Shown: positions 11,105 through 20,789 of the stretch, one piece after another | How the letters are laid out: the number at the start of each line of letters is the position of its first letter | Numbering within the stretch: the first letter of the stretch is position 1 | Assembly: GCF_011745625.1 (NCBI RefSeq) | Contig: NW_027191454.1 | Span: forward strand, 310,001 to 374,000 | Origin: Cladosporium halotolerans | Lineage: Eukaryota | DNA length: 64,000 bases | Direction of reading: 5' to 3' | Position numbers and translations under genes: made by a program | Notes under the pieces: model-generated | What the model was told of the DNA's origin: nothing | Seen by the model: the letters and a program-made list of their open reading frames with translations, nothing else | Databases searched by the model: none

Positions 11105-14100
11105 TCAATGCCCATGGATCCACGCGGACCTCATCCCAGGTCCACTGGGCAACTTACCCTTCATCAGACCAACATCAATCGCGGTGCTGCCAGTCATGCG
11201 ACGACCTTGCGGCACGTCGTCACAAGCAGGGGGGCTGGGGTACTTCAAGAAAAGATTCTCCTGCGCGTCCCAGTCCATTGGGAGGTCCATGGACAGCGAG
11301 CGGGATCGGTTCGGCGCCTTCAAGTAGTTTGTCGTGTAGTGGCGCTGCGCCTGCCGTTGCGGGGTCTTCGTGGAAGGCTTGCTAGGCTGCTTGCGGGGGG
11401 CACGAGGTTGCTTCGGCTTGTCGCTGGGAGCTTTGGGAGTAGAGGAGGAGGGTTTCGGAGGCGACTTCAGCGCCTTCACGAGCTTGTTGAACTCGCTGGT
11501 GTCGGAGGTGATCTGAGCGCGGAGGAAGTCGGGCGATCGAGGGGTCGTGAGCGTCTCCATTACAGGCGTGCGAGGGGTGTATTCCCAGCGTTGCGGCTGA
11601 GGCGGATCCGTCGATTCAATTGCTGGATCCAGGTAGGCATCTTGTCCCTTGGCAAGAAGCTGCATGATGTCGATGCTCTCTCCGGGCGGAATTGCAGTGG
11701 GATTCGAAGGGGTTATGCAGTCCATGTCGACCTCCTTGCGAAGAACGTGGTCGATATCCACGGCTGAGAAGTACGCGCAAGACTGCGGCAGATCGTCGAT
11801 GCCCATCTGCTGAGCGAACATGGCACGCGTCCACACGTTTGCCACTTGAAGTGCCATTGCCGTGCGGTAGTTGTCCTCGTTCTTAGACAAGTAGCGGATC
11901 TCATCATGTACGGTCAATGCTAGGCGGGCCTGAATGTTGTACCGGCGGCACAGATAGTCCATGCTAACAATCAAAAGGTGAAGGTAGTCGACACCGCTTG
12001 ATTGAATAGCCCAGTTAATACGACTGGTCATGAAACCGCCAGCATTAATGTACCGGCGCATCAACGCCTCCGTGATACCGGCACCAAGCACCGGGGTCCG
12101 AGGCTTCTCCTCTTCAGCGAAATCTTCAAGCTTGTTGAAGACGAGCGACTCAGTACCACCGGTCCAGAATTTGCGGTCCCTGAGAATCTTCGCGCCGCGT
12201 TTCTTTCCCTTGGTGTTCAAGTAGAGGCTTTCAGCGATCTTCTTCGCGTCTTCCTCTTTCAGCGAAGGGTTGAAGCGACGAAGCAAGCTGACGGCGAACG
12301 TGAGACCGGCTCCATAGATACGACCATAGTTGAAGACCTTTGCGTCATTCCTACTGATTCCAAGAATAGACGCCGTGCGAGAGTGCAAGTCAGTACCGGC
12401 TGCCTTTGCACCCTCAAGAGTCATGAAGCCGATCGCGTTGCCGCCATGGATTTTGAAGCTGGCGTCTCCGACTAGCGATGCAATCCAGAGCTCCTGACTA
12501 TCGACATCTGCGCCGACGAAAGAGTAGCCCGGCGGAGCAGTGACCATGCTTTTGAGCTCGGATCCGACACGGTTGGCTTTTGCATTGGATGCTGTCAGCC
12601 AGGTGTTCTCCACTGCGCGCCGAGTAATGGTGCCCATGGGGATAAGCTGCGGCAAGATGAAGCCTTGTTCATCATCCGCATTCGTCGAGCCCGGACGCTC
12701 TGAATTGTACACAACCATCTGCGATGTAATTCTGTCGCGGGCGCTGATCCAGTAGCTGCAGCTCGCGTTCATCTGCAGCGCTTCCTTCGCGTAAGGAAAT
12801 TCCGAAGACAATGTTCCTTGTTCGAAAAACGACAGATAGCCTTTCGCCAAAGGGCTCGCGCAACGCGCGGTCGGTCCATCTTTGTGAGGGAGCTTGAAAT
12901 AATCGTGATGCAGATCGCCCTTCAGAGACAAATTCTCTTCCTCGAACATATCACATCGCGTCATTGCCATGTCCTCATACTTCTTGGACTCCGCCACAGG
13001 CACCTTGAATGTCCAACCGAACTTGTCGCTCCACACCAGCGGATGATCGTCCCATGCGAGCCGTAAAAGAAGCGGCGAGATCCGTGTTCGGACTGTGAGA
13101 TTGATGTCGCCGCCGGTCTGCGGGAACAGCTCCTTGTACCATTTGGGCATGCCTGGCATCTTCTGTCTTGCCACGGGACGCGGTGGGTTCTTTTTAGTCC
13201 CTTTTGTCATGCGCACTTCCTGCCCTGACCAGTCAAGCTGCCGAAGCCATGGGTCGTTCTGATACACGTCGGGCTTTGCACGAAGCTCCAATGCGCGATT
13301 GGCAAGATCGACCAATCGTTCTTGCACGCCCGAAGACAGCTTTTCATATGTCGCCTCCGCATTAGCGATGTATGCTTTCCAGCCCTGGTTGACTGGTAGA
13401 ATCTCCGCAGACATGTGGCGCAGTGCAGCGAAAGAGACCGGGTGCGGGCAAGTCTCCAGGAAGTGAGGCAGGACCTTTTTGTACACGCGATGCGTGATAT
13501 CGACATCCGCAGCGCAATAATCCAGCAGCTCGTCCAGCTTTGCCACAACACCCTCCCGATCAAGCTCTCCGAACCACTCCCGCTTCGCTTTATCGATCGT
13601 GATGCCACAGTGAAATTTGGCGACGTCCCGAAGACTGTTGACCGAGCTGCGTCCAACCCACAGATCCTCCTCCATGTCCATCGACTCACCCGAGCCCAGA
13701 AGAGAATGCAAGTCGGCCGCGCTCTCATCCGACGCAATCTTATCTTGCACCTCTCGCGCCTTGCGGTGCTTCACCCACGTAGGCCGCTGCCGGCTACACA
13801 TGCCGTTGGCCGCCACGTGCAGACTCATGGTGTCCATGAAATAATTCTTCGACTGCTGCATATCATACTCCTCCAAAATGCGAGCCCGGTCGTAACCGAT
13901 GTTGTGCCCAACAATAATCCTCGGCTTCGTGAAGTCGCCCAGCGGAATCAAGTGCCTGTCGTTCTCGCTCTCCCCGAGCAGCCACGGCGAGATCCAAGCG
14001 TACCAGTGCGTCGCCGACACAGCGCACGCCATGGCCGGGAAGTTCGTCTCTTTATACATGACCTCCGTGTCGAACGTCAGAGCCTCCTCGTCCGGCGCTT

Positions 14101-14659
14101 CGACCGCCTCCCAGCTTCCGTCCTCGTTGTACTTCGTCCATCCGCTCCGCTGCTGCCACTTCCTCGGTCTCGTCGGCGGTGAAGCCCTCGCGTACTTCCT
14201 CGACATTGACAGATATGGCTCCGCGCTCTCCATGCCCAAGCGGTAGAAATGCTCGTCCAGAGAGGTTCCCTGCAGGTCCGGTAGGTCGAAGCCGATCGGC
14301 TCGGATTTGTCGCTCGTCTTGCCGAGCAGGTCGTGTCGTGTCAGGTGGTCTTTGGACATAGCGACGAGCTCCGGGTCGGCCGCATATCGCTCTCGATAGG
14401 GAATCGGCGGGAACAGCTGCGGGTAGACGTGGGAGGAGACCTGCTGCACGCCGATTTCATTGTGCCTGGCCTGAGAAGGCACCTGGAGCGTCCGAGGGTG
14501 TGTATCCGACTGCTCGGCGGCCGCCTGCGCCGCCGCAGCGCTGGCGTAGCATCTCTGCGCATTCGACCATTTAGGGGGCAAAGGTGACAGGCGGAGGAGG
14601 GAGGTCTGTTGCGTGCGCTCGAGCGCGTTTGCCACGTGCCGGTGGCATCTTGATCGCAT
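11105..14659 (-). CDS. MIP1: Mitochondrial DNA polymerase gamma (intronless)
   Basis: Exonuclease motifs LTFDTEV, VGHNIGYDRARI, YCAADV; polymerase motifs VGADVDSQELWIA, AKVFNYGRIYGAG, SRINWAIQSSGVDYLH, TVHDEIRY; Arg-rich presequence. Confidence 0.96.
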   Translation of the reverse strand: MRSRCHRHVANALERTQQTSLLRLSPLPPKWSNAQRCYASAAAAQAAAEQSDTHPRTLQVPSQARHNEIGVQQVSSHVYPQLFPPIPYRERYAADPELVAMSKDHLTRHDLLGKTSDKSEPIGFDLPDLQGTSLDEHFYRLGMESAEPYLSMSRKYARASPPTRPRKWQQRSGWTKYNEDGSWEAVEAPDEEALTFDTEVMYKETNFPAMACAVSATHWYAWISPWLLGESENDRHLIPLGDFTKPRIIVGHNIGYDRARILEEYDMQQSKNYFMDTMSLHVAANGMCSRQRPTWVKHRKAREVQDKIASDESAADLHSLLGSGESMDMEEDLWVGRSSVNSLRDVAKFHCGITIDKAKREWFGELDREGVVAKLDELLDYCAADVDITHRVYKKVLPHFLETCPHPVSFAALRHMSAEILPVNQGWKAYIANAEATYEKLSSGVQERLVDLANRALELRAKPDVYQNDPWLRQLDWSGQEVRMTKGTKKNPPRPVARQKMPGMPKWYKELFPQTGGDINLTVRTRISPLLLRLAWDDHPLVWSDKFGWTFKVPVAESKKYEDMAMTRCDMFEEENLSLKGDLHHDYFKLPHKDGPTARCASPLAKGYLSFFEQGTLSSEFPYAKEALQMNASCSYWISARDRITSQMVVYNSERPGSTNADDEQGFILPQLIPMGTITRRAVENTWLTASNAKANRVGSELKSMVTAPPGYSFVGADVDSQELWIASLVGDASFKIHGGNAIGFMTLEGAKAAGTDLHSRTASILGISRNDAKVFNYGRIYGAGLTFAVSLLRRFNPSLKEEDAKKIAESLYLNTKGKKRGAKILRDRKFWTGGTESLVFNKLEDFAEEEKPRTPVLGAGITEALMRRYINAGGFMTSRINWAIQSSGVDYLHLLIVSMDYLCRRYNIQARLALTVHDEIRYLSKNEDNYRTAMALQVANVWTRAMFAQQMGIDDLPQSCAYFSAVDIDHVLRKEVDMDCITPSNPTAIPPGESIDIMQLLAKGQDAYLDPAIESTDPPQPQRWEYTPRTPVMETLTTPRSPDFLRAQITSDTSEFNKLVKALKSPPKPSSSTPKAPSDKPKQPRAPRKQPSKPSTKTPQRQAQRHYTTNYLKAPNRSRSLSMDLPMDWDAQENLFLKYPSPPACDDVPQGRRMTGSTAIDVGLMKGKLPSGPGMRSAWIHGH

Positions 14660-15180
14660 TCTGTCGGGTCGCCCGTTCACGTCCGCGACATGGTCTCGTG
14701 AGTGGTGAGGTGGGTAGGGTGAAAAGGGCTGGTGGCAGCGCGGCCTCGTCGCGCGTCATGCCCGCAGTCGTGATGACAGGCTGACAAGCTCTCGGCAGCC
14801 CGCCGCTCTCCCGCGAAGCCCTGCGCAGATGAACTCTATTTTCGTCGCATGTCGCACCGCATGGCGGGGTTGACCTAGTGCATGACAGATTTCACTAAAA
14901 CAATGGATTTGGGCAAAGGCAAATCCTGGATTGGTTTTTATTTAATCCAGGATTTACGAGTAGCTCGCCAGTCTCAGGAACAACTATTAGAATTGATTTT
15001 GCTATTCGATTTCCTTCGTTCCATCATTGAAAGCTACCGGCTAACTAATCGTACAGCAATAGCAAGCTCGCATCGGAGATTGATCACCATAGCACTGCAC
15101 TTGCAGAATTACTCACCAGTAGCTCTCACGTATAAACATAAAGCTGAGAGCCCCGTTCTCGCACCATGTCATCCTCGCAT

Positions 15181-17060
15181 CTAGTACCTAGGCGGTCCAG
15201 AGCTGCCGGGGTAAGGCGGCTGTTGACCAGGGTAGCCGCCTTGGCCAGGAGGACCGCCAGGAGGAGGCGCGTATCCACCCTGCTGGGGACGGCCAGGCGG
15301 CGGGCCAGGCGGAGCATTGTAGCCGCCCTGCGGCTGGCCGTACTGGCCCGGGGGAGGGCCGCCGTAACCGCCTTGGGGTCCGCCGTAGCTTGGGGGTCCG
15401 CCGTAGCCTTGCTGCGGGGGAGGACCACCGTATCCGGCGCCAGGGGGAGGAGCTTGGCCGCCCTTCTCATCCTGAGTGTCGTAAGACGGGTCAATGGCTC
15501 CGAGGATGAGTTTGAGGACCCAGAGGTCCGGGGTGAGGTCGACTGGCGGCTGGGCGCGAGCCATCTCGGCAGACTCGTTCTCGAAGTTGGAAGTGCAGTC
15601 GACCATGGAGCCGATCTGGGGGTCGCTGTCCAGCTTGCCGAGGAACTCAGTAGCTATCATGTTGTCAGTTTTTGTACCCTGGGAGAAACATCAATGAGAC
15701 TAGAGCCATTCGCTTACCCTTCTGATCGTTGCCGACCTGCGCGAACTGGAAAGCAATTGCACCAGGGCCGAGGTTGGAAGTCGAGTTGACGGCGTAGCGG
15801 ATGGTGTCCTCAAGGGAGCCGTTGTTCTCGCCAGCAGGCTGACCATCAGTGATGCCAATGACCAGGATGGGCTTGCGCGGCTGGCGGAGCTTGGGCAGAA
15901 CGATCGGATCAATGACCTTCTGGCGCAGCTTGGTGCCGAACGGCGTAAGACCCTTGTATTTCTTGCCCTGCAAGACGGATTGGATCTGCTGCTCCGTGCG
16001 AATGCCCTCGAGCATGTTCGGCGGGATACTGTCATCGTTCATGAAGCGGATGTCGATACTGCGAGGTCTGTCAATAACTGATGGCTTTTCTCCATAATGA
16101 TCGTATGTGAAACTAACCCATCCTCGTCAAACAGGGTTGCGGCAAAGGCCACTCTCTGCATGATAAGCTCGAGATCCTTGATACGCTCGCCATTCTCCTC
16201 AAAAGCCATAGAGCCACTGTCATCAATGTAGATGACAACGTCGTACAGCGCAAGGCGGACGATATCCACGGCGATTTCGCGAGGGATGCGCCACGCCTGG
16301 CAGAGCTTGTCTACCTGCTGGGCTGCGCGCTGAGCGATCGGCTGTAGACGAGGGTCTCCAGGAGGGTAGAACGATTGGAGTCGCTTCTGCTGAATGGCCT
16401 CTTCAAGCTGACGCACGTATCCACTAACATCTTGCGGGCCGGCAGGCCCTGGAGGAGGAGGTCCGCCGCCGAACTGCTGCTGCGGAGGCGGGCCAGAACC
16501 ACCCATCGGAGGAGGTCCGCCATAGCCCTGCTGCTGTTGGGGAGGCGGCGGGCCACCGGGGTAGGAGGAAGGCGCGCCCTGTGAAAGCTACTGTTAGTAC
16601 ACGTGCTCGTAGTGCTGTGCAAACGACTGATGATTCAATGCATGTGAGAACGAACATAGCCGCCTTGTTGTTGCTGCGGAGGGTATCCTGGACTTTGACC
16701 ATATGGTGATGGGCTGTAGGGCGCAGGGCTGTAGGGCTGCTGAGGCGGTGGCTGAGAGTAGGGAGCCGGCGCGCCTGGATAGGGACTCGAGGACTGCGCA
16801 GGTGGTGGTGGAGGCGGGCGCGCATATTGGTTTTGCGACTGCTGCTGTCCGTACTGGGGCGGCTGTCCATATTGAGGGCCCTGAGGCGCAGGCGACTGGT
16901 AACCACCCGCAGGCGGATATCCACCAGGAGCGGGCGATTGGTACCCAGTGCTTTGAGGTCGATTGACCTGGAGCGGCGCGGGGTACGGCGAAGACGCGGG
17001 TGGTTGTTGGCTCGGAGGCCCCCCAGCACCGCCCGCAGCAAGGCGCGAGGCGAGAGGCAT
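15181..17060 (-). CDS. Pro/Gln/Gly/Tyr-rich protein with vWA domain (RfeF-like), proximal-start isoform (exons 17060-16656, 16578-16118, 16058-15718, 15653-15181)
   Basis: LALYDVVIYIDDSGSMAFEENGERI (MIDAS DxSxS), GLTPFGT, KPILVIGITDGQP, FQFAQVGND; low-complexity PGY tails at both ends; all junctions stay in frame. Confidence 0.85.
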
Positions 17061-17245
17061 GGTCCGTCCAAGGGATCCGATTGGGTGTTTCGCGTGTCAC
17101 AATAAAGGTATAGGTGTGTTCAGGTGGCGCAGGCGATCGAAGCGGGGATCGTAGAGTGTTGGTTCCACAGGCGCGCAAGGGAAGGAGTGGTTTGCGGGAA
17201 GGCACAAAGAAAACAAGTTGGAAAGCAATCGCGCGAAGGGCTCAC

Positions 17246-17629
17246 CTGGCTTGGGTTGTAGGCTTGGTACTATGAGGCAGTTAGTCACGAGTCGTCATTG
17301 CGAAGCTTGCAGCGCCGAAAGTCCGGTTCCGGTTCGCGTCGGCACCGCAATACGCGACATGTGTACTCACCTGCTGCGGAGCTCCACCTCCTCCGCCGCC
17401 TTGGGCAGCTGCTGCGTTGGCCGCAGCCATCTTCTGAGCGAGCTGCGCATTCTGTCAGTACTGCATTTGATATCTTGCCGCAGTGGCCGCTCTCAATCAT
17501 CTCCGTATCAGTCCTCCTCCGTTTCCCTGGCGCCTAGATTTCGAGAGGCGAGGATGACGTTGATGAGGGGCTGAGTTGGCTGGGATGGTGGGGTTGACGA
17601 AGCAGGCGGGCAAGGAAACTTACACCCAT
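17246..17629 (-). CDS. Alternative upstream coding exons of the vWA/RfeF-like gene (17629-17624, 17442-17371, 17269-17246)
   Basis: ATGGGT|GTAAGT; TACTGAC..GCAG|72-nt exon|GTGAGT; GACTAAC..ATAG|24-nt exon|GTGAGC. All phase 0, encoding MG-LAQKMAAANAAAAQGGGGGGAPQQ-YQAYNPSQ, and compatible with the phase-0 acceptor at 16578. Confidence 0.75.
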
Positions 17630-18200
17630 AATGGCTGGTTGAGTGCGTTCAGGTGTTCGAGGTGGTTGATATTGCAATTGTTGTGCTGGTGCGGTGCCTG
17701 ATGAATAGTTGAGTCTTGTTCAGGAAGAGAGGACCGACGTTGTGAAGTGGATGTAAGGTGTTCTGGTCGAGCAAGGTCGCGACTCGTACGCTTTAGCTTC
17801 GCAACCGAGCTCTCAGCTGGCACAGCCACACAGACAGGGCCTGATTCCTGCGCTTTGAAGCAAATAATCAACCACGGTTGTGCTGTGCAAATCTAAGCTA
17901 GTTTCGCTCGCTTATTCTCGGGCGATTGCTTCACGAGCAGCAAACACTTAGCGGTTACACGTGACGAGTGACAATGTGGTCTTCACGGTGGCATTCTCAC
18001 AGCCACAAGCCCTACGGTAGGGCGCAGGGCGCAGGGCAACGATGATGCACATCATGATGTTATTAATGAGGCGCAGCAGGCATGTCACGCTTAACCGCGT
18101 ACACACACCTCGCGATGAGCGCGCTGACCACACCTCGTACAATATCCTATGGACATACTGTTATCCACACAATAATGCTACCGTCCTCTATGAGCATCAA

Positions 18201-20354
18201 TCATGGCGAGCCAACCTCGAATCTGCCCTGCTTGGCGTTCGCCGCGTCGTCAATCGTGGATCTGAACTCCTTCCACAACTTCTTGACCACTCCATCATCG
18301 ACCATGCGGTCCACGATCTTGTTGGCGTGTTTGCGACGCTTTTTCGTGCTCATCTTGTCTCGCCTCTTCAATTCCTTGGCCGTGTCATACTTCTGGTTGT
18401 GCAGCCATTCTACGACCCATTCGTACAAGTGATACCGCCAGTGTTGAAGAGCGTGTGCCGTGCGTGCGTTCTGAGCACAGAAACGGCCAAGGTACCAAAT
18501 GCGATTGGCCGGTGGCACTTCTAGACCGCGAGAATCGTAGACAACGTGATCTCCAGTCGATTGCTCGCTGTCGTCGCTATCGTCCTCTTCGTCATCATCG
18601 TCATCATCCTTGCCGACTTCTTCCAGGGTCTCACGGTGGTACGGCTTCCCAGTAAACTGCATTTCGATAGTCGCCGGGTGGCTGCCGCGATTGCAGGCGT
18701 CGCATTTGTCATGTACAAAATCAGCGCCACCACCCATGGGGCTGTCACGTTCAATGGCGGGCCGCGAGCGAACCGCGCTTGTAAACTCGGCGTTCCATGC
18801 AGAAGACATGAATTTCGACCCTGCGAGCCCAGAAACTTCGTCGTCTAGCTTCTGAAAGGTGAGGGTGTAGATCTCGTCGTCCATCGCAAAAGCCGGGTTG
18901 ATCTTCTTCTGCACCATCCATTCGATTGCGAACTTCCACAAATCCTTGGCTTTCATCGACGCGTATCTCGTGTACTTCAGCGGAATCCCTTCGGGCACAC
19001 CAAGTACATCGTCATCGCCCTCCTCAATGAAATCTTCGTCGTCTTCGTCCGCGTCGAACATAGCGCGTCTGCTCACGCGTTCAGGCTCGGGAGATTCCTC
19101 CGAGTTGTCGTACATCTCGTCAAGTTCGCGTTGGTCCTGCATCGCAGCGTCTTCATCCTCATGAATGTCTGGCAGTGAAGGCTGACTCGATCGCGCTTGC
19201 TTCAAACGCTCCAAAGCCTGCTGCCGTGCGTTCTTCTTCAGCGTTTGTGAATCTCTGGGCGGTCGATTTTCCTCAACATCGCTGCTTGGCCCAATGAAAT
19301 CCAGATCTTCCTTCAAATCATCTTGTTCCTCCTGTGTGAAAGCCGGTTTGCGCCGCTGTAAGCGACGCTTGCCAGGAGTCACCGGTGCTAGTTCTTCATC
19401 ATCGTCGCTGTCGTCTTGTTGTGCAGGTGCTCGATTCGGGTCATCGATAATCTGCAGGTCGTCTTCACTGCCAGCAACTTCCGCGGGAGGTGACGAGCTG
19501 ATGAATGACGATTCTCGCTCCTTCCTCCGACGCTTTTGTGTTCCCAACGTTGTTGGCATGTCGTCCTCGCTGTCGTCGTCCACTGCTGGAGCCTTATCAG
19601 GCACAGGCCTGGCTTTCTTCCTAGCACTTGGGAGCACAATCTCATCCTCATCCTCATCCTCGTCTTTGTCCTCATCCGCAGCGCCATCCGAAATAGGTTT
19701 GACCTTCTTCCTAGCACTCGGCAGCGCAATTTCGTCCTCATCCTCATCCTCATCCTCATCCTCATCTTCTTCTTCTTCTTCTTCTTCTTCTTCTTCCTCC
19801 TCCTCAGGACTCGGCTCCCTCTCAACCTGCGAACTCCCCTTTCCACCCGAACTCATAAACCCCATCTTCCGCTTCTTGCTGCCTCCACGCACTGTAATCT
19901 CGTCACTATCCTCGCTCGACTCCTCATCTCTACTCCTCTTTTGCCCTCTCGCCTGCGTAAACATGCTCGGCGCAACAGGCGGATCGGCGTTTAGTCTTCC
20001 GTTCGAACTCTCAGGCCCGAAATCGAGCCTCTGCTGTTTCGCGCGGCGCTTGTTGGACTTCTTCCGCGACGACGATCGCAAGGGGTCTGATCTGATCTGC
20101 TGGTCTTCGTTTGCTGGTGTCGGGAGCATCGTATTTGTGTTTGCGGTTGAGTCGTGGATAGACGCATCGTTTTCGTCTATGTGAGACGCGGGCGCCGATC
20201 GTTTGCGACGCTTTGAAGATTGTGACGAGTTGCCGTAGCCGACAGCGGCGGCGCGGTCTTGGATCTGCTTATTGTAGCCTTGAGCCGCAGGGTCGGAAGA
20301 AGGGATCGGGGTGAATGTTATGCGCGCCTGGCGTTTGCGCGTGCTGGGCGCCAT
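18201..20354 (-). CDS. Acidic low-complexity protein with C-terminal DUF4211-like domain
   Basis: Long intact ORF; AIEWMVQKKINPAF, KFMSSAWNAEF, CDACNR, GRFCAQNARTAHALQHWRYHL; several basic NLS-like clusters. Confidence 0.75.
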   Translation of the reverse strand: MAPSTRKRQARITFTPIPSSDPAAQGYNKQIQDRAAAVGYGNSSQSSKRRKRSAPASHIDENDASIHDSTANTNTMLPTPANEDQQIRSDPLRSSSRKKSNKRRAKQQRLDFGPESSNGRLNADPPVAPSMFTQARGQKRSRDEESSEDSDEITVRGGSKKRKMGFMSSGGKGSSQVEREPSPEEEEEEEEEEEEEDEDEDEDEDEDEIALPSARKKVKPISDGAADEDKDEDEDEDEIVLPSARKKARPVPDKAPAVDDDSEDDMPTTLGTQKRRRKERESSFISSSPPAEVAGSEDDLQIIDDPNRAPAQQDDSDDDEELAPVTPGKRRLQRRKPAFTQEEQDDLKEDLDFIGPSSDVEENRPPRDSQTLKKNARQQALERLKQARSSQPSLPDIHEDEDAAMQDQRELDEMYDNSEESPEPERVSRRAMFDADEDDEDFIEEGDDDVLGVPEGIPLKYTRYASMKAKDLWKFAIEWMVQKKINPAFAMDDEIYTLTFQKLDDEVSGLAGSKFMSSAWNAEFTSAVRSRPAIERDSPMGGGADFVHDKCDACNRGSHPATIEMQFTGKPYHRETLEEVGKDDDDDDEEDDSDDSEQSTGDHVVYDSRGLEVPPANRIWYLGRFCAQNARTAHALQHWRYHLYEWVVEWLHNQKYDTAKELKRRDKMSTKKRRKHANKIVDRMVDDGVVKKLWKEFRSTIDDAANAKQGRFEVGSP
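19735..19806. repeat. Coding microsatellite (TCCTCA)n(TCT)n encoding poly-Glu/Asp
   Basis: Directly visible tandem hexa- and trinucleotide repeats. Confidence 0.9.
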
Positions 20355-20789
20355 AGTTTGGGGCGTGAGGAGCTGTTGCTGTTGCAAGGAAGGGTTTCAA
20401 ACAAAGCGAGGTGAAGCTGGACAGACGACATGCAGAGAATGAAAAGGAAGCAAAGCAAAGCAGTGAGATCAAAGCGGTTTTCGCGGCATATGGTATGGCA
20501 GTGACAGTGAGAGGCTGCCTTTCGCATGTGAAGAAGCCCTGGCCCTTCACTTTTCCATCAGCCGAGTCACGTCCGTCGCGTCTCAGAAACATGACGTGCA
20601 CGGGCGAATGACGTGCATCAGATCGCCCTCTGGCGCCTTCTCGTTTGAGCTTCACGTGCCATGTCCTGGAGTTCACTGCTCATCATCTAAAAGTATTTGA
20701 TGAGAGGTTCTTTTCAGGCTTTGCGAACTATTCCGTTCCAGACTTCAATCAGGCCAAAATCAACCAAGGGCCGTGCCAAACGGCCCAAG

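Follow-up and report, generated by a model that had tools for sequence, protein, structure and literature searches.

Alternative, mutually similar N-terminal cassettes in a gene for a putative RfeF-type vWA protein of Cladosporium halotolerans

Structure of the gene

The gene described here is located on the minus strand of the window (the whole analysed stretch of 64,000 nucleotides, positions 310,001 to 374,000 of contig NW_027191454.1 of Cladosporium halotolerans) and is transcribed into two mRNA forms with different N-terminal coding sequences. The start of the protein is encoded by three micro-exons, E1, E2 and E3 (cassette A), in the short form and by one large exon, exon B, in the long form. 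The two cassettes are mutually exclusive: they are joined to the same acceptor and are never combined in transcripts. That this gene has two alternative N-termini which resemble each other had been proposed in a preliminary description, made from the sequence alone, and is borne out by the joints of both forms, by the similarity score of the leaders and by their conservation. The best explanation of the whole, which we regard as reasonably probable, is that two exclusive paralogous 5′ cassettes use one acceptor and that the long form originates mostly from an internal start. The following features were identified.

17630..17846 (−), 5′ UTR of the short (A) form; contigs extend to 17846 (run X3) and 17732 (run X1)
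17624..17629 (−), micro-exon E1, 6 nt, ATGGGT (Met-Gly), donor GTAAGT; sequence and joint to E2
17371..17442 (−), micro-exon E2, 72 nt, donor GTGAGT, product LAQKMAAANAAAAQGGGGGGAPQQ; joints at both ends
17246..17269 (−), micro-exon E3, 24 nt, donor GTGAGC, product YQAYNPSQ; joints in four of four runs
17061..17247 (−), leader of the long (B) form, rich in pyrimidines and lacking ATG, with a candidate internal RNA 5′ end at 17247; contigs and sequence
16656..17060 (−), exon B, 405 nt, 135 aa from MPLASRLAAGG, P/Q/Y/G-rich, donor GTTCGT; joint to 16578 and alignment with P0006
16579..16655 (−), 77-nt intron of the long form, branch site TACTAAC; contigs and sequence
16118..16578 (−), common exon C1, start of the vWA domain and MIDAS motif DDSGS; the acceptor at 16578 serves both cassettes
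15718..16058 (−), common exon C2, vWA core, TDGQP; joints on both sides in four of four runs
15181..15653 (−), last coding exon C3, G/P/Q/Y-rich tail to PPRY; coding from 15653 to 15184, then TAG
15014..15180 (−), 3′ UTR, bounded by the ends of contigs from X1 and X3 near 15014; the end in X3 is adapter-capped

Boundaries of the downstream exons C1–C3 were corrected from transcript joints. No upstream ATG was detected by a sequence scan of 17900–17630. The peptide of E2 matches the N-termini of the homologues P0007 and P0008, and the YxAY motif of E3 is kept in relatives. The introns of the two forms overlap: the 667-nt intron that is spliced out in the short form includes, at its 3′ end, the 77-nt intron of the long form, and the leader 17061..17247 doubles as its 5′ part. 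Within 17245–17061, the sole AG belongs to the donor of E3, and no ATG is present. The sizes, donors and leader translations of the three micro-exons given in the preliminary description agree with the sequence and the joints, and its statement that no AG other than that of the donor lies between 17245 and the ATG at 17060 is correct for the window. The absence of AG between the donor of E3 and the ATG of exon B was also considered as a conserved feature and was rejected, since the intervals from E3 to this ATG contain 2 to 12 AGs in relatives and 4 in the window.

Transcripts of the two forms

Contigs from four sequencing runs (X1, X2, X3 and X6), belonging to four studies, were aligned to the window; the run type RNA is a guess, and contigs of this kind do not reveal strand, start sites or levels. 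Fourteen runs guessed to be RNA contained roughly half of the words sampled from the stretch, a share compatible with exon-only RNA. Both downstream introns are skipped in all four aligned runs (joints 16058>16118 and 15653>15718), so the contigs represent spliced RNA.

The joint 17442>17624, connecting E1 with E2, was found in three runs (X1, X2 and X3), and an 8-letter loose end fitting E1 was found in X6. The joints 17269>17371, connecting E2 with E3, and 16577>17245, connecting E3 with 16578 and skipping 667 nt, are present in all four runs. Exon B is connected with 16578 by the joint 16577>16655, which skips 77 nt, in three of the four runs, and in X1 a 14-letter loose end fits the common exon. 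All four junctions predicted from the sequence, 17624>17442, 17371>17269, 17246>16578 and 16656>16578, are accordingly represented in contigs of three to four runs each, and both junction sets, not only one of them, were observed in the four runs. Contig depths at the competing joints are rough values and are similar in order, namely, 3.2 vs 8.5, 171.8 vs 108.6 and 19.6 vs 19.1.

The preliminary description had named a route to a single protein, in which the 24-nt exon would be joined to an AG within exon B; no joint from E3 into exon B was detected in the contigs of the four runs. The joint 16733>16882 (148 nt, GG..CC ends), found in X3 only, is non-canonical and situated in repeats, and was rejected as an assembly or strain artefact.

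Protein products and similarity of the leaders

When the exons were joined by script, both reading frames proved open. The short form encodes a protein of 458 aa starting with MGLAQK, and the long form a protein of 559 aa starting with MPLASR. Cassette A, composed of 6, 72 and 24 nt, yields a 34-aa leader from MGLAQKMAAA. The short product is 79.9% identical to P0008 (aligned over 1–458) and 77.6% identical to P0007, both of which start with MGLAQKMAA; the long product is 76.5% identical to P0006 (aligned over 1–559), which starts with MPLAARLAA. The best named relative is P0006, a hypothetical protein of Cladosporium fusiforme that is 83% identical in the first common exon.

The N-terminal 10-mers of the two leaders align with a BLOSUM62 score of 23, no other window of exon B scoring above 4, and the likeness has p = 0.00016 in a fixed-register shuffle. 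Both leaders begin with M-x-L-A-x-[KR]-[LM]-A-A, and both carry an element of the Y-x-A-Y type. Across taxa, MGLASKLAA resembles MPLASKMAA, MPLASRLAA and MSKFSRLAS, and the B leaders of Pleosporales also bear the Y-x-A-Y element of E3. As judged from these sequences, the simplest reading is that the cassettes are old paralogues, which would have arisen by duplication of a start-codon cassette before the split of these orders.

In predicted structures, an N-terminal helix is present in both leaders: it covers residues 2–15 in the A leader (pLDDT about 76 for residues 1–10) and residues 3–9 in the B leader (pLDDT 52), being shorter and weaker in the latter. The 135-aa arm contains a PPQY site, and the protein ends with PPRY. 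The rule for N-myristoylation (PROSITE PS00008) includes Gly2 and a small residue at position 6. The A leader has Gly2, but its residue 6 is Lys (MGLAQK, MGLASK), in disagreement with this rule, so that myristoylation of the A form appears doubtful. Gly2 also occurs in one B-type leader, that of P0018; thus, the contrast between Gly2 and Pro2 is not universal.

Conservation of the two cassettes

Among 120 homologues, 14 have B-type starts and 36 have A-type starts. Among 79 loci obtained by scanning metagenome contigs, nine (genomic; eight distinct) have an A-type E2 situated 327–399 nt upstream of a B-type ATG. Both leaders, not one only, are therefore conserved in relatives, according to the starts of homologues and the metagenome loci. 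More than one transcript is already listed at this locus by some annotators, as seen from the labels 'variant' (P0037, P0040) and 't2' (P0018).

The complete spliced ORFs of the metagenome contigs comprise 12 cDNA-like ORFs of the A type and two of the B type, L008 (548 aa) and L033 (587 aa). Contig L002 is a B-type contig cut at its 5′ end, in which the junction between B and the common part is spliced. Contig L067 was considered as a B-type cDNA with a long 5′ UTR and was rejected as genomic, its introns being retained. In a second species, L005 (A type, 502 aa) and L008 (B type, 548 aa) share 1499 nt and 457 C-terminal residues with 100% identity, and their sequences separate precisely at the junction, ...CAG|GGAGC vs ...GGCTAC|GGAGC, as in the window. 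This pair is independent, second-species support for the two-form design. The body of exon B is marked by the motif xRPPPPPP, found in both complete B-type ORFs and in none of the 12 complete A-type cDNA-like ORFs. The mutual exclusivity of the cassettes follows from the four runs, from the comparison of L005 with L008 and from the lack of the B body in the 12 A-type cDNAs.

The motif is also present in 10 database proteins with an A start, fused forms of 529–670 aa, all of which are models of NCBI genome annotation. Since no joint between A and the B body was found, and since no A-type ORF of the 12 contains the motif, these fused models are probably prediction artefacts, although rare real fused isoforms may occur in the species concerned. 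For the gene of the window it is extremely improbable that a single protein is made by splicing leader A into an in-frame AG inside exon B (the first such AG is at 16967), which is the arrangement modelled by NCBI for Zymoseptoria, Cercospora kikuchii and Hortaea: AGs in phase 0 are indeed present within exon B and the 10 fused proteins do exist, but they come from genome annotation without exception, and neither the four runs nor the complete A-type ORFs contain the product of such splicing.

Coding capacity of exon B

Substitutions were counted from the best supported 40 of 86 differences. In exon B, five of the six substitutions listed are synonymous and at the third position; in the common exons, the corresponding count is 16 of 18. 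An in-frame insertion of 15 nt is present in exon B in X3, and insertions of 1 nt are situated just upstream of the ATG. P0086 and P0110 have the same start peptide, MPLASRLAAGG, and near variants are MPLAAKMAASG and MPLASKMAASG; more distant variants of the B start are MSKFSRLAS, in proteins named as belonging to Chaetothyriales, and MPLSTKMSAGYNAY, in a protein named as belonging to Pleosporales.

Between the start of E3 and the ATG of exon B, no ATG was found in any of nine genomic intervals (the window and eight homologous ones, of which eight in all are distinct, L018 and L019 being identical there; L025 was omitted, the search pattern having found no E3), with 13.7 expected. None of 2000 shuffles gave so low a count, a figure that is not a probability, several of the loci being kin. 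The control interval between E2 and E3 contains 16 ATGs across eight loci. Such depletion would be expected of a leader crossed by scanning ribosomes on their way to the B start.

Taken together, the synonymous pattern, the in-frame indel, the conserved start peptide and the depletion of ATGs, all read from sequence comparison, indicate that exon B is coding. It is very unlikely that exon B is noncoding, the long RNA being intron-retention noise with a cryptic donor and the short protein alone being made. The donor of exon B, GTTCGT, is weaker than the other donors, and the complete cDNA-like contigs are mostly of the A type (12 vs two), as would be expected if this were so. However, noise does not account for the pattern of substitutions and the in-frame indel, for a leader kept in 14 proteins and nine loci of several orders, or for the ATG-free sequence upstream. 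In three runs, moreover, both forms have comparable depths at their junctions, and the B-type cDNAs L008 and L033 are spliced and have intact frames of 548 and 587 aa.

Start of the long form

The preliminary description had interpreted the alternative, similar N-termini as the products of two promoters. The N-termini stand; for the promoters, the evidence is divided between an adapter-capped end at 17247 and E2-linked read-through in X2 and X6.

The long-form contig of X3 stops at 17247, where adapter letters follow. The same run is likewise adapter-capped at the 3′ end of the mRNA, at 15014, so capped ends seem to mark positions where many fragments stop. This end at 17247, the missing acceptor and a leader devoid of ATGs favour an internal start, and we consider it reasonably probable that most of the long mRNA starts on its own near E3.

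In X2 and X6, the long-form contigs run unspliced through E3 to 17271 and carry three further letters that do not fit intron 2. The k-mer length of the Logan assembly graph is, we assume, 31. With this value, the position where these contigs stop, 5 letters upstream of E3, is that of the first 31-mer specific to the long form if E2 and E3 are spliced. Intron 2 has no depth in X2 or X3, E2 alone accounting for the depth bins. This geometry and the empty intron 2 indicate that some long RNAs stem from the upstream promoter; in an RNA of this kind, the A frame runs for 75 codons and stops before the ATG of exon B. Two metagenome contigs, L001 and L011, lack the downstream introns, retain the intron of the 77-nt type and begin, respectively, 5 and 11 nt upstream of E3; they fit both readings.

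A possible alternative, to which we give distinctly less credence, is that a single promoter serves both forms. The donors at 17245 and 16655 would then compete for the acceptor at 16578, the long RNA would consist of E1, E2 and E3 followed by the retained stretch and exon B, and the B protein, if any, would be made by reinitiation or leaky scanning after the A frame has ended at its 75th codon. The contigs of X2 and X6 stop just where such read-through predicts at k = 31, and the absence of depth in intron 2 agrees with it. Reinitiation would be aided by the ATG-free interval too, and the read-through ORF, ending at 75 aa, is in line with it. However, one promoter does not predict the adapter-capped 5′ end at 17247 in X3, and the long-form contig of X2 has a depth of 10.7, above the 3.8 of the contigs bearing E2 (rough values). 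It would also be unexpected for the start peptide and frame of B to be strongly conserved if translation had to reinitiate after an ORF of 75 codons.

Proposed mechanism

In the scheme with an internal start, exon B would act as a first exon, because no acceptor is present upstream and its leader is free of ATGs. Most of the long-form mRNA would start at E3 or just upstream of it, at about 17247–17274. In a minority of cases, pre-mRNA from the upstream promoter would use the donor at 16655 before that at 17245, thereby consuming the acceptor at 16578. The choice of cassette, by start site and/or by competition of donors, would set the N-terminus that precedes the same metal-binding vWA domain. 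The outcome would be either a Gly2 protein of 458 aa or a Pro2 protein of 559 aa, which has an additional low-complexity arm before the MIDAS vWA domain. The two forms may differ in binding partners or location, and the leader may influence binding to membranes or partners.

A more far-reaching version, which we hold to be rather improbable, describes the locus as an ancient promoter-selected leader switch on a copine-like vWA protein of the calcium pathway. The pair of cassettes would be older than the split between Dothideomycetes and Chaetothyriales; the Gly2 form would be lipid- or membrane-associated, and the Pro2 form, with its 135-aa P/Q/Y arm and an extra PPxY-like site, would be soluble and bound to partners or condensates. 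The ratio of the two would be set by signals such as calcineurin–CrzA.

Significance

Alternative, duplicated first coding exons are a kind of feature already known, and the present locus is a well-supported, deeply conserved fungal case. It is a clean fungal example of exclusive, paralogous cassettes that contain the start codon; to our knowledge, fungal alternative splicing with a clear consequence at the protein level is still sparsely documented. Two-form splicing explains the disagreement among public models of this gene, which are short, long or fused (A+B), and carries a practical message for gene annotation. Isoform-aware experiments could be key to finding a phenotype for this family, which is regulated by calcium/CrzA in Aspergillus according to the passages on this gene in PMC2818617.

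Protein family and comparison with known systems

The product is probably a vWA protein that resembles copines and RGLG and belongs to the fungal 'RfeF' group, the link with this group coming from the source names of homologues. The only family found with Pfam was PF10138 (vWA-TerF-like), with E-values of 5e-6 to 5e-5 for P0005, P0006 and P0008; the scores of 24.0, 26.2 and 27.3 bits, respectively, are below the gathering score of 29.4 bits. Precomputed tags assign PF10138, in a newer version of the family, to many homologues. No Pfam match was found for the single exons of the window. A Rossmann-like vWA fold is suggested by modelling: in the AlphaFold model of P0008, the vWA core has pLDDT values of 86–96, and the arms on both sides are disordered, and a Foldseek search with this model gave 91 matches at E ≤ 0.001, including RGLG1, BON1 and integrin I domains. 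The MIDAS motifs, DDSGS and TDGQP, show no variation among 23 sequences of the A type and 16 of the B type, and both are encoded in the exons of the window.

The name RfeF refers to a protein of Aspergillus fumigatus (Afu4g10200), and homologues P0043, P0085, P0087 and P0117 are labelled 'RfeF' or 'transcription factor RfeF' in their sources. The connection consists of these source names and one line of a table in PMC2644712, and 'transcription factor' is a label rather than a demonstrated activity. According to the passages on this gene, rfeF mRNA of A. fumigatus is induced by calcium in a CrzA-dependent manner (PMC2818617; PMC9603945), and in the conditions described there its deletion left growth as in the wild type (PMC2818617). 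The main-text passages on RfeF/Afu4g10200 contain no mention of isoforms of rfeF.

The best structural matches of the P0008 model are the copine-type vWA domains of the plant proteins RGLG1/2/5 and BON1 (PDB 6k87, 8xt5, 8hmh and 6kxk), with E-values of 7e-6 to 3e-5 over about 270–290 columns, although identity is only 13–16%. Copines have two N-terminal C2 domains, whereas no C2 domain was found in the fungal proteins P0005, P0006 and P0008 at E ≤ 0.01; with neither a C2 nor a RING domain of Pfam, the fungal protein has low-complexity P/Q/G/Y arms flanking the vWA domain instead. Unlike the C2 pair of copines, the fungal N-terminus is predicted to be disordered, with the exception of one helix. 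BON1 and RGLG proteins are N-myristoylated. For the RfeF family itself, we know of no activity.

Mutually exclusive tandem-duplicated exons and alternative first exons are well known in animals and have been catalogued in fungal transcriptomes. The locus resembles mutually exclusive duplicated exons in having two related cassettes, one per mRNA, which share one acceptor. It differs from exon duplicates in general in that the duplicated unit contains the start codon and one copy is split into three micro-exons, and the pair of cassettes is conserved across fungal classes.

Fused gene models and leader cassette

In ten NCBI gene models of homologous proteins, with a length of 529–670 aa, the A leader, encoded by micro-exons E1–E3, is joined to the body of exon B, the exon of the B leader (P0016, P0019, P0024, P0025, P0029, P0030, P0046, P0051, P0064 and P0068). 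This join is without support from any transcript-like contig.

The design of the cassette differs among lineages. Among the more distant metagenome loci, some have an A-type leader that continues directly, with no intervening intron, as a long frame of low complexity (L046:456-2070, 535 aa); others contain, after E2, a second start of different wording (MHKFNQ... in L043:3446-5730).

Intron 1, located between E1 and E2, is unspliced in one contig (depth 19.9, window 17463–17629) of X3, one of the public runs presumed to be RNA and read as assembled contigs; therefore, partly processed RNA is present in run X3.

Gain and loss of repeats seem to alter the low-complexity arm encoded by exon B. 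In run X3, a 15-nt in-frame insertion representing a duplicated repeat unit was found in exon B at window position 16713, and one contig of this run carries a non-canonical skip of 148 nt with GG..CC ends (16733–16882).

Neighbouring open reading frames

The vWA gene is flanked by two open frames:
11105–14755, (-), frame of 1216 aa, directly downstream of the vWA gene
18201–20396, (-), frame of 731 aa, upstream of the vWA gene

The downstream frame, judged by eye, looks like the gene of mitochondrial DNA polymerase gamma. The upstream frame contains long runs that are acidic (D/E) or rich in Ser. Contigs of the vWA gene extend in the 5' direction as far as 17846, which leaves ~350 nt to the stop of this frame.

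Last exon and C-terminus

Short stretches of the last exon, 15247–15279 and 15575–15606, are matched by contigs of the public runs X1, X3 and X6, followed by unlike sequence. These stretches, which correspond to the G/P/Y-rich tail and a conserved portion, are probably common to a paralogue or a different gene.

Most of the homologues listed have the C-terminal sequence PPRY (window site 15184–15195), and some have GGRY; the terminal Tyr is near-invariant across both homologue alignments, A1 and A2. PPRY is a motif of the PPxY type, and an additional such site, PPQY, is contributed by exon B.
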